DNA of 64,000 nucleotides from Bacteroidia bacterium (GCA_020051175.1 JAGVJJ010000004.1:43558-107557), one strand, 5' to 3'; counted from the stretch's first letter, positions 43,931-62,500 are shown. Notes: a model not told the origin generated them from the letters alone. Program-made: numbers and translations.

Positions 43931-46900
43931 ATGGAATACAATTTCAGAGAAGTAGAAAAAAAATGGCAGGAACACTGGGCCAAGAATAAAACCTATAAAA
44001 CGGAGAACAGCTCTTCCAAACCTAAATATTATGTGCTGGACATGTTCCCGTACCCAAGCGGGGCTGGCTTGCACGTTGGGCATCCGTTGGGATATATTGC
44101 TTCTGATATTTTTGCGCGCTACAAACGCCTGAAAGGTTTTAATGTATTACATCCGATGGGGTATGATTCATTTGGTCTTCCGGCTGAACAATATGCCATT
44201 CAAACCGGCCAGCACCCTGAAATTACTACCAAAACCAATATTGCACGTTACCGTGAACAGCTGGATAAAATAGGCTTTTCATTCGACTGGGACAGGGAAG
44301 TGAGAACCTCCGATCCGAGCTATTACAAATGGACCCAATGGATTTTTATTCAGTTATTCAACTGCTGGTACAATAAAAAAACGAACAAGGCGGAGAAAAT
44401 AGAAACGCTTGTTAAAACTTTTGAAACTACCGGTTTTAAAGGTACCGAAGATGATATTTTAACCGGTGATTTGGAAGTTTACCACGATGGTTTTACCGCT
44501 GAAGAATGGAGCGGTTTTTCAGAAGCTACTAAAGAGCAGGTTCTGCAACAATTCCGACTTGCTTACCTGAGTGATACCATGGTGAACTGGTGTCCGCAAC
44601 TGGGTACCGTGCTTGCCAATGAAGAGGTGAAAGATGGTGTTTCTGAGCGTGGGGGCTATCCGGTGGAACGTAAGCTGATGAAGCAATGGAGCCTGCGTAT
44701 TACGGCTTATGCCGATAGATTACTAAATGATTTGGAAGGTATTGACTGGACGGAAAGTATTAAAGAAGCGCAGCGTAACTGGATAGGGAAGTCGGTAGGA
44801 ACCAGCATCCGTTTTAGCCTCACCCCTGGCCCCTCTCCAAAGGAGAGGGATAACACGCCTGGCTATCAAACAGCAAATAAGGCAATATGGGAACGATTGA
44901 AATCCAATTCGAGAGAAAATAGGAAAAATCAAACAGAAGCAGAAGAGCTTCTTTGGGAGCAAGTGCGAGATAGGAAGCTGGGATATAAAATCAGGAGACA
45001 GCACGCTGTTGATCAATTTATAGCAGATTTTATTTGTTTGGAACAAAAACTAATTATTGAAGTTGACGGTGAAATACATAACTATCAGCAGGAGTATGAC
45101 GAGGGAAGGACTTATCTTTTGGAAGAAATTGGTTATAGAGTAATCAGATTTACAAATAATTCAGTAAAGGAAAATATCAATTGGGTTTGCGATGAAATTG
45201 CAAAGGCGTTACAGTCTCCCCTCTCCTTTGGAGAGGGGGCAGGGGGTGAGGCTTTTGTTGAAGTCTTCACCACCCGACCCGACACTGTTTTCGGAGTGTC
45301 CTTTGTAACATTAGCCCCGGAACATGAACTGGTAGCGAAAATTACAACAGATGCACAAAGAAAAGCAGTAGAAGAATATGTGACATTTGCCAAAAACCGC
45401 AGTGAGCGGGAGCGTATGGCAGATGTGAAAAAAATTACCGGGGTGTTTACCGGTGCTTATGTTGCACATCCGTTCACTGGAAAAAAAGTTCCCGTATGGA
45501 TAGGCGACTATGTGTTGGCCGGTTATGGAACAGGTGCAGTAATGGCAGTTCCTGCGCACGATTCGCGTGACTTTGCTTTTGCAAAGCATTTTGGATTAGA
45601 CATTACTCAGGTTATTCTTCCCCCTTCTCCTTTGGAGAAGGGGCCGGGGGATGAGGCTTATGAAGCTAAAGAAGGGAAATTGGTTAACTCTGATTTTCTG
45701 GACGGATTGGAGGTAAAAGCTGCCATCAAAAAGGCGATTGCCGTAATAGAAGAAAAAGGCTTAGGGAAAGGCAAAACCAATTTCCGTTTGCGTGATGCTA
45801 TTTTTGGGCGTCAGCGCTATTGGGGGGAGCCCATTCCGGTGTATTATAAAGATGGAATTCCTCATGTGTTAAGCGAAAGTGAATTGCCGTTGGTATTGCC
45901 GGAGGTAGATAAATATCTCCCTACTGAAACCGGTGAACCACCATTGGCCCGTGCCAAAGACTGGAAATACAAAGGGGAATATGAATACGAATATTCCACC
46001 ATGCCGGGCTGGGCTGGCTCTTCCTGGTATTTCCTGCGTTATATGGATGCACATAATGACAAAGAGTTTGCTTCGAAAGAGGCAGTAAACTATTGGCAAA
46101 ATGTAGACTTATACATGGGCGGGGCGGAGCATGCTACAGGGCATTTACTGTATGTGCGTTTCTGGACAAAGTTTTTGTACGATTTAGGATTGATTCCTGT
46201 GATCGAACCGGCAAAAAAACTGATTAATCAGGGGATGATACAGGGAAGAAGTAATTTTGTATATCGTTTAGGTTTTGTGGGGCATATTGAGAATGATGGA
46301 AAAGATAATAAAATTTTTGAATCTCTTCCTTCACTATTCGTGTCTAAAAAATACTTTGATAATCAAACAGAATATAACACTGAGATATTTGCAAGACATT
46401 CCAAAATACTCAAGGAGAATAATATTGCGTCTTTACCACCGATTAGGTACCACGTGATTATTCCATTGCATGTTGATGTTAATATGGTGGAAAATGATGT
46501 ATTAAATATAGAAGCTTTTAAAAATTGGAGAGAAGAATATAAGAACGCTGAATTTCTTTTGGAGGACGGCAAATACATCTGTGGCAGCGAAGTAGAAAAA
46601 ATGTCCAAATCCAAATGGAATGTGGTGAGCCCGGATTCTATGGTGGAGCAATACGGTGCAGATTGTTTGCGCCTGTATGAAATGTTTTTAGGGCCTCTGG
46701 AGCTTTCCAAACCTTGGAACACCAATGGCATTACAGGTGTTTCTAATTTTATGCGTAAGCTGTGGCGATTGTATCATACCACAGACTGGAACAACACCCC
46801 TCTCCTTTGGAGAGGGGCAAGGGGTGAGGCTATCAGCAATGAACCAGCTACAAAGGCCGAGCTAAAAACCCTGCACAAAACCATAAAAAAAATCACAGAA

Positions 46901-47314
46901 GATATTGATCGTTTTTCATTCAACACTTCCGTAAGTAATTTTATGATTTGTGTGAATGAGCTAACGGAGCAGAAATGTAACAAACGTGAGATACTGGAGC
47001 CTCTGGCAATCATTATTGCGCCTTATGCACCGCACATTGCAGAAGAGCTGTGGAGCAAGTTAGGGCATAGAGAAAGCATCACGTATGCTGTTTTCCCTGA
47101 ATGCAAAGAAGAATACCTTGTAGAAAGCTCCTTCAATTACCCTGTTTCGTTCAATGGAAAAACCCGCTTTTTTCAGGAATACGACCGCTCTTTATCCAAA
47201 GAAGAAATAGAAAAAGAAATCATGACCCTGGAGCAAACCCAGAAATATCTTGAGGGAAAAACTCCTAAAAAAGTGATTGTGGTGCCTAATAAGATTGTAA
47301 ATATTGTGATATAG
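43931..47314 (+). CDS. leuS: leucine--tRNA ligase carrying three in-frame repeat-element insertions
   Basis: The HIGH motif ([10 protein letters not shown]), NWIGKS, the editing-domain [24 protein letters not shown] and the C-terminal anticodon-binding region are all present in a single 1127-aa ORF. Confidence 0.95.
44818..45251 (+). mobile_element. TIR-bounded ~434 bp module encoding a DUF559 (Vsr-like) endonuclease domain, in frame within leuS
   Basis: The left end CCTCACCCCTGGCCCCTCTCCAAAGGAGAGGG (44818-44849) is the near-exact reverse complement of the right end CCCCTCTCCTTTGGAGAGGGGGCAGGGGGTGAGG (45218-45251). The interior translates to [82 protein letters not shown], the DUF559 pattern. 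Confidence 0.6.
45620..45657 (+). repeat. solo copy of the palindromic repeat, in frame in leuS editing domain
   Basis: CCCCCTTCTCCTTTGGAGAAGGGGCCGGGGGATGAGGC is translated as [13 protein letters not shown]. Confidence 0.85.
46797..46830 (+). repeat. solo copy of the palindromic repeat, in frame in leuS C-terminal domain
   Basis: CCCCTCTCCTTTGGAGAGGGGCAAGGGGTGAGGC is translated as (T)[11 protein letters not shown]. Confidence 0.85.
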
Positions 47315-62451: not shown

Positions 62452-62464
62452 AATAGAAAGATTT

Positions 62465-62500
62465 CCCCTCTCCTTAGGAGAGGGGATGATGGGGTGAGGC
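62465..62500 (+). repeat. intergenic copy of the palindromic repeat found in leuS
   Basis: CCCCTCTCCTTAGGAGAGGGGATGATGGGGTGAGGC fills the 50-nt spacer between the asnS stop (62502) and the meaB-like start (62451). Confidence 0.85.

Follow-up and report, generated by a model that had tools for sequence, protein, structure and literature searches.

A solo palindromic repeat of a DUF559-cassette family read in frame within the editing domain of a Bacteroidia leucyl-tRNA synthetase

The leuS gene found in a 64,000-nt stretch of DNA from Bacteroidia bacterium (GCA_020051175.1 JAGVJJ010000004.1:43558-107557, referred to here as the window) raises the question of how a 38-nt palindromic repeat came to be read as part of a housekeeping enzyme, leucyl-tRNA synthetase (LeuRS), and of what has kept its stem perfect. 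The repeat, denoted here as copy C, is located at 45620-45657 on the + strand and encodes residues 564 to 576 of the protein, downstream of the sequence ...GLDITQVIL. The comparisons described below identified copy C as one solo copy of a short mobile repeat, inverted pairs of which constitute the ends of in-frame DUF559 cassettes in housekeeping genes of Bacteroidia. Regarding its origin, the reading that we prefer, to which we assign a probability of roughly 0.7 on the basis of sequence comparison, is that copy C would be a translated and tolerated right-end repeat of this cassette family, present on its own and spread by homing-like, short-patch gene conversion.

No match to the 38-nt string is expected by chance (100 dinucleotide shuffles). 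Its arms form a stem of 10 bp with no mismatch, and the hairpin, as single-stranded DNA (ssDNA), was estimated at -10.6/-11.0 kcal/mol on either strand. The repeat lies in an uninterrupted open reading frame (ORF), the sole full-length LeuRS match in the 82%-complete assembly of the source genome, in which Pfam delimits the LeuRS editing domain at aa 441-604 and a DUF559 domain at aa 322-428. The string, the frame and the Pfam domain all agree with the claim, made in a preliminary description of this DNA, that a solo palindromic repeat is translated inside the editing domain. Pfam shows only LeuRS and DUF559 domains in the LeuRS protein and no Hint domain; copy C is not an intein, because its 13-residue insert is too small to hold one.

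The family to which copy C belongs is defined by a hairpin, CCCC(T/C)TCTCC-N3-GGAGA(A/G)GGGG, followed by a spacer of 2-5 nt and a G-box, GGGG(T/A/AT)GAGGC. Copy C presents in this order a C/T-rich arm, a loop within the 3-4 nt range, the complementary G/A-rich arm, the spacer and a G-box of the form GGGG(N)GAGG(C/T), and it matches the family profile in an nhmmer search. As many as four family copies, named A to D (Table 1), are found within leuS. Copies A and B are the terminal inverted repeats that flank the DUF559 domain, in a cassette placed 370 nt upstream of copy C, and copy D, relative to the sister gene L007, amounts to 36 nt cleanly inserted between AAC and AT. At the genome level, a permissive hairpin regular expression (758 matches) was replaced by a tail-anchored hairpin scan and the nhmmer profile, the scan yielding 38 family copies in the 4.05 Mb of the source genome. 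About one quarter of them are deep within long ORFs, the others being intergenic or at gene ends, in both orientations. The long-ORF hosts identified by Pfam are an IleRS with a DUF559 cassette, AspRS, IspG/GcpE, a DUF58 protein, a methyltransferase and a collagen-like protein.

Some of these hosts deserve a description of their own. The IleRS (C102:53111-57085, 1325 aa) carries its own in-frame DUF559 cassette at aa 700-805, bounded by hairpins of other types (CCCTTCCC/GGGAAGGG to the left and CCCTCCCC/GGGGAGGG to the right), plus an additional solo copy at C102:53754-53784. In-frame solo copies are also found deep in AspRS (C35:51261-53042; SPLLWRAAGGEA), in IspG/GcpE (C43:9141-11183; ALSFGEGWGEA), in the DUF58 protein (C26:137293-138312) and in a SAM-methyltransferase-like protein (C52:7925-8893). 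Finally, double-tailed forms, in which the complement of the G-box, the hairpin and the G-box follow one another, occur at C51:4-53 and C10:37454-37494 of the same genome; this is the product expected from recombination between inverted cassette ends across their palindromic cores.

What copy C changed in the enzyme was evident from the comparison of about 100 leuS genes (30 from relatives of the source genome and 80 from public metagenome-assembled genomes of Bacteroidia). In most of them, the position is occupied by a native loop of 9 residues, either Pro-Pro-VDWDFxxxS or (A/S/T)GGDLSKE(S/A), and this comparison shows that the native loop, downstream of the HDSRDFAFA motif of the editing domain, was replaced by copy C. 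With respect to the sister L007 (87% identical), 9 codons were exchanged for 11, and with respect to a loop of the L050 type the net change is +5 codons. The repeat had initially been considered to add about 12 codons, a figure that must be lowered to a net gain of 2 or 5, since the native loop was replaced. In orthologous leuS genes devoid of the palindrome, the loop is unrelated in sequence. The left junction of copy C is ambiguous over 5-6 nt, because CCCCT can be attributed both to the Pro-Pro codons of the native loop and to the hairpin arm in the subfamily of copy C. The LeuRS from T. thermophilus (1h3n) needs no gap in the alignment over this stretch, where it has a loop of its own that is just as long, and in an AlphaFold2 (AF2) model of aa 434-656 the copy C stretch appears as coil, with a confidence score (pLDDT) of 71 between flanking blocks at 93 and 87. 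From this we infer that copy C is probably translated and tolerated as a flexible loop of LeuRS. The possibility that the native loop (PPVDWDF...) were itself a decayed repeat was discarded: no convincing nucleotide similarity was found, and this type of loop is widespread in families without repeats.

A second piece of information came from the stem. Copy C has TTCTCC/GGAGAA in its arms, whereas copies A, B and D of leuS have TCTCC/GGAGAG, and this difference had been interpreted as a compensatory change. A census was made with a profile derived from 28 seed copies, which was searched against the source genome and 109 leuS loci of relatives and did not require complementarity. Among the 103 distinct copies obtained, stem pair 4 was C:G in 84, T:A in 18 and C:T in a single one, while none was half-changed (T:G or C:A). 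Furthermore, an ATG within the G-box (GGGGATGAGG, GATGAGG) was present in 15 of the 18 T:A copies, the 84 C:G copies all lacking it, and copy C has both T:A and ATG. Counted over the whole stem, 855 of 913 cells were Watson-Crick; when the right arms were exchanged at random between copies, the figure was 809 +/- 4.4, and it did not exceed 825 in 2000 shuffles. Of the 301 genomes sampled in the class, 45 contained the exact T:A hairpin, with about 162 copies in all (a reversed-pattern control giving 0), and in the five genomes richest in it the counts were 156 for C:G, 58 for T:A and 5 for half-changed pairs. One further member of the T:A subfamily lies in the source genome, on contig C31, directly after a stop codon. 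These data place copy C in a subfamily whose marks are T:A at stem pair 4 and the GATGAGG box. Accordingly worded, the compensatory interpretation survives in part: pairing is kept and the paired substitutions are reproduced in many other copies, but, judging from their distribution, they constitute an inherited subfamily mark, that is, roughly one putative evolutionary event amplified by copying, and not a compensation that arose in leuS. Neither of the results by which the preliminary description would have been contradicted, namely paired substitutions missing from other copies or a peptide conserved in relatives without the palindrome, was obtained.

The notion that the hairpin rather than the peptide is kept was borne out by five orthologous T:A copies in leuS genes, in which third codon positions are near-invariant within the repeat (0-2 differences in 13) and highly diverged in the flanks (34-50 in 100). 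This could reflect a regulatory hairpin in the leuS mRNA, selected because it makes ribosomes pause between the parts of the editing domain or because it tunes expression, as the repeat nucleotides are better conserved than the flanking synonymous sites, the RNA fold of a 48-nt context reaches -22.2 kcal/mol, and the hairpin is retained in the minimum-energy structure of a 141-nt context (z = -2.1). However, the z-score of the short fold is only -1.3, such modest values being explained by the strongly biased composition. In addition, the unit is also found inverted in leuS (copy A), in intergenic regions and in the genes for IleRS, AspRS, IspG, the DUF58 protein and the methyltransferase, and the closest leuS relatives, L007 and L050, lack the repeat, its gain being recent. 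Stem mismatches of the T.G and C.A kinds, once the outermost pair is excluded, are similarly frequent (11 and 7), so there is no sign of selection on one transcript strand. In view of the two orientations, the intergenic copies and this balance, ribosome pausing or mRNA structure as the selected trait, an idea already present in the preliminary description, obtained no support, and we consider it highly improbable. The pattern of conservation fits repeated re-templating from a common pool, a process suggested by comparison of the copies, better than it fits purifying selection in place.

In some yeast mitochondria, GC-rich hairpin inserts are bypassed by ribosomes, and it might be argued that the segment in LeuRS is likewise skipped at expression, through translational bypass or a hairpin-guided excision of RNA, leaving a mature LeuRS without it. 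Against this notion, no stop interrupts the host frame in any copy situated well inside a long ORF, the change in gene length caused by copies C and D, measured against relatives, is a multiple of three, and among copies in the + orientation the single frame in which the G-box would yield TGA is avoided. Stop-free, in-frame copies would be unnecessary if the segment were skipped, and no Rfam family matches the copy C region (E up to 1). Skipping is, therefore, the least credible of the explanations considered here.

How, then, did the repeat reach this loop? The loop is filled in 10 of the approximately 100 leuS loci, and it is filled by hairpins of three types: CCCCTTCTCC/GGAGAAGGGG with the box GATGAGG in 7 loci, CCCCTCTCC/GGAGAGGG with the box GAGAGG in L083 and, decayed, in L046, and CCTTCCCC/GGGGAAGG with the box GATGGGG in L098. 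All three types are self-complementary, which represents covariation among the occupants of one site. In a tree of the leuS core the filled genes are scattered: L001 is sister to the empty L007, L004 is found among empty genes with the GGDLSKES loop, and L002 groups with the empty L003 and L021. The filled state involves 8-9 changes on trees made from nearby or from distant leuS columns, and near the copy C site the filled genes resemble each other more than they resemble their whole-gene sisters. The plainest example is provided by L004 and L050, which are about 99% identical across leuS, except for the cassette and the copy C patch. The difference in the cassette has sharp junctions, with 8 codons replaced, and the patch consists of copy C plus a stretch of about 80 nt upstream that is dense in single-nucleotide polymorphisms, identity returning within the G-box. 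This pair exhibits what a homing-like process would leave behind, namely presence or absence at one site of a conserved gene, with co-converted flanks.

The relationship between solo copies and cassettes could be deduced from other sites in leuS. Six of the 10 filled genes have no cassette in leuS, and a strict linkage in cis of copy C to the cassette was, for this reason, ruled out. At the cassette site at aa 296, the loci compared are either empty (16 residues between TSLKF and IEV) or hold the full cassette, and two further states exist: both ends kept with the nuclease ORF deleted, as in L061, and solo right ends that adjoin the same host codon as the right end of the cassette. In L061 (DATEMK010000110) the insert has 43 residues and retains both terminal repeats (HLSPNPSPLERG ... 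LSFGEGGGEV), having the appearance of an internally deleted cassette. Likewise, the leuS of another genome, G030 (L027), carries a full DUF559 cassette at aa ~683 in the numbering of the source genome (RYWGEP +55 to +230), between ...NWNYK and YPYELTTMPGWAG, and its right end is of the same subfamily and frame as copy C, reading SPSPAEKGQGDEA followed by Tyr. At this very site L002, L004 and L050 have solo copies, which in L004 and L050 are decayed (SSFEGGKGDDA). The cassette of G030 with the solos at aa ~683, together with the stages of decay at aa 296, indicate that solos and cassettes have sites and ends in common.

It could be thought that copy C is the remnant of a full cassette that once occupied the loop at aa 564, its left end and nuclease ORF having been lost, together with the native loop codons, in an internal deletion; the allele would have no mobility of its own and would have spread afterwards by ordinary recombination only. 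All the stages of decay are represented at aa 296, including solo right ends at the host codon of the cassette, aa ~683 offers a full cassette in one genome and solos in others, and such a deletion would account for the missing native loop. In contrast, no full cassette was found at aa 564 among the approximately 100 leuS loci, the presence of three hairpin types in one loop would require three separate invasions and decays, and L004 acquired its solo copy as such within a divergence of about 1%. We regard this explanation as unlikely, albeit clearly less so than those based on the mRNA.

According to the preferred reading, short-patch conversion, with a filled allele as donor, would have brought copy C into leuS in this genome and into several unrelated lineages of the gene, as the comparisons among loci suggest. 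The conversion would follow a break made in trans by the nuclease of the family, whose activity and target are predicted ones. The stem would remain perfect because only hairpin-competent copies are propagated or re-templated, and neither the peptide nor the structure of the leuS mRNA would be the target of selection. The nuclease-bearing partner of the family encodes only a DUF559 domain of about 110 aa, and two DUF559 domains are present elsewhere in the source genome. Comparison with empty alleles revealed no target-site duplication around copy C, copy D or the cassette, and no transposase was found associated with the DUF559 cassette, contrary to what defines a miniature inverted-repeat transposable element (MITE); host codons are deleted at the junctions of copy C and of the cassette. 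A more ambitious proposal, which we advance only tentatively, is that the hairpin plus G-box of 33-38 nt might be a nuclease-free homing module: DUF559 nucleases encoded elsewhere in the cell would cut conserved loops of housekeeping genes, and repair from a filled allele or from an ectopic copy would install the hairpin and delete the loop codons. Were this true, the module would be to bacteria what GC clusters are to yeast mitochondria, and the repeated invasion of a single LeuRS loop by different subfamilies would lead to a steady replacement of loops in essential enzymes across Bacteroidia.

Several observations weigh against the conversion scenario and are gathered here. Between L002 and L003, which are about 15% diverged, excess divergence is found on both sides of the repeat, and a one-sided conversion tract as a general rule was discarded on this account, L004/L050 being a single case. 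Two other solo repeats common to L004 and L050 show 2 differences in 33 and 4 in 38 positions, on a background of about 1%. The repeats are, therefore, not uniformly conserved, and copy C may owe its conservation to recent re-templating and not to purifying selection. Plain homologous recombination between lineages, with no nuclease involved, would give an equal patchiness. Since none of the approximately 100 loci showed a full cassette at aa 564, a cassette remnant and the movement of a solo unit look the same at this site. Lastly, the completeness of the source assembly leaves room for a second leuS, and the relatives are all metagenome-assembled genomes.

Mobility of a different nature was considered as well, given that a short, palindromic unit, rich in GC and with a tail on one side, is present in tens of copies, and that the source genome encodes two Y1_Tnp homologues. 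Such features are those of repetitive extragenic palindromic (REP) elements mobilized on ssDNA hairpins by REP-associated tyrosine transposases (RAYT) or by Y1 transposases of the IS200-IS605 type. However, the repeat that flanks the better of the two Y1_Tnp matches (C75:9934-10278) is another one, of the classic GTAG-tagged REP type and with ATTTGTAG at its end; no family copy was found on the contigs of either Y1_Tnp gene; and the family unit has neither a GTAG nor a CGTC tag, is often intragenic and bounds DUF559 cassettes. With another repeat around the RAYT-like gene, no tag, and about one quarter of the copies deep in ORFs, a REP/RAYT origin was rejected as very improbable. The locus in question (C75:9534-10680) contains the RAYT-like Y1 transposase gene with arrays of the GTAG-tagged repeat GCGGCAGAGCCGCGAAAYATTTGTAG on both sides.

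A literature search produced no published description of a Bacteroidia family combining hairpin and G-box with DUF559 cassettes, although likenesses to four known systems can be recognized. Rickettsia palindromic elements (RPEs) are inserted in-frame in many unrelated, often essential genes and translated as an extra peptide at sites considered compatible with the fold (Ogata et al. 2000, reviewed in PMC10969869). The present family is also palindromic, in-frame and found in essential protein genes, but the likeness is one of behaviour only: RPEs measure about 100-150 bp, are confined to Rickettsia and have no linked nuclease, whereas the unit described here has 33-38 nt, occurs in Bacteroidia and doubles as the end of a DUF559 cassette. 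Moreover, unlike RPEs, copy C replaces native loop residues, and the same loop has been refilled in different lineages.

Among the GC clusters of yeast mitochondria, those of var1 are optional in-frame inserts, which alleles lacking them acquire through a unidirectional form of gene conversion (Strausberg & Butow 1981; Hudspeth et al. 1984; reviewed in PMC8811140). They share with the Bacteroidia repeats the condition of short GC-rich palindromes in an AT-rich genome and of optional coding inserts. However, GC clusters are organellar, have terminal AG/TAG repeats and lack a Vsr-like nuclease cassette with the same ends, and neither terminal AG/TAG repeats nor a target duplication were present at the family junctions examined. 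I-Bth0305I, the prototype of the Vsr-like (EDxHD) homing endonucleases, is encoded in a self-splicing group I intron (PMC3239194). Similarly to Vsr-fold homing elements, the family cassettes encode a Vsr-fold nuclease, reside in conserved essential genes and show presence or absence with converted flanks; in contrast to I-Bth0305I, the cassette is read through, with no intron or intein, and copy C is free of nuclease. The fourth system is that of REP elements, with the mosaic forms known as BIMEs (bacterial interspersed mosaic elements), and RAYT transposases: these repeats lie outside genes, are tagged with GTAG or CGTC and border the RAYT genes (PMC3733652). The family resembles them in size, in its GC-rich imperfect palindrome and in having tens to hundreds of copies per genome, but differs in that the RAYT-like gene of the source genome is flanked by another repeat and not by the family unit.

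In-frame selfish palindromic DNA in essential genes, known mainly from Rickettsia and yeast mitochondria, appears here in free-living Bacteroidia, where the repeat is associated with a cassette for a Vsr-like nuclease and where its scale is considerable, considering that the 45 genomes mentioned above refer to the T:A hairpin alone and that hairpins of the common type exceed 100 in one genome. What is new concerning the solo copy is the reading of the paired change as a subfamily mark, the replacement of the native loop, the three hairpin types in a single loop, and the near-identical pair of filled and empty genes. The L004/L050 pair and the three types provide a direct handle on how a short repeat enters a conserved coding sequence and leaves it intact, and on how enzyme loops are replaced. 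A practical consequence is that peptides such as PSPLEKG.GDEA, LSFGEG.GGEA and LLWRGAGGEA, encountered in Bacteroidia proteins, correspond to translated repeat DNA and not to protein motifs.

Table 1. Coordinates, in the numbering of the window, of leuS, of the family copies and of the parts of copy C.
Feature	Position	Strand	Remarks
leuS, 1127 aa, uninterrupted ORF	43931..47314	+	Pfam LeuRS
Copy A, cassette left terminal repeat, inverted	44817..44849	-	10-residue peptide
DUF559 nuclease domain (Vsr-like PD-(D/E)xK), in leuS frame, aa 322-428	44894..45214	+	Pfam
Copy B, cassette right terminal repeat	45218..45252	+	12-residue peptide
Copy C, solo repeat, T:A/GATGAGG subfamily	45620..45657	+	13-residue peptide in leuS frame
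Copy C, left arm	45621-45630		CCCCTTCTCC
Copy C, loop	45631-45633		TTT
Copy C, right arm	45634-45643		GGAGAAGGGG
Copy C, spacer	45644-45645		CC, 2 nt
Copy C, G-box	45646-45657		GGGGGATGAGGC
Copy D, second solo copy	46797..46830	+	11-residue peptide
Family copy outside leuS, near start of opposite-strand 322-aa ORF	62464..62500	+	

Apart from the loop described here, leuS contains a second strongly mosaic stretch, at aa 805-908 (~46343-46654), which corresponds to a variable insertion of the catalytic domain. In these columns L001 and L004 are 67-90% identical, while the identity between L004 and its whole-gene sister L009 falls to 17-38%, a pattern that suggests recombination between lineages.

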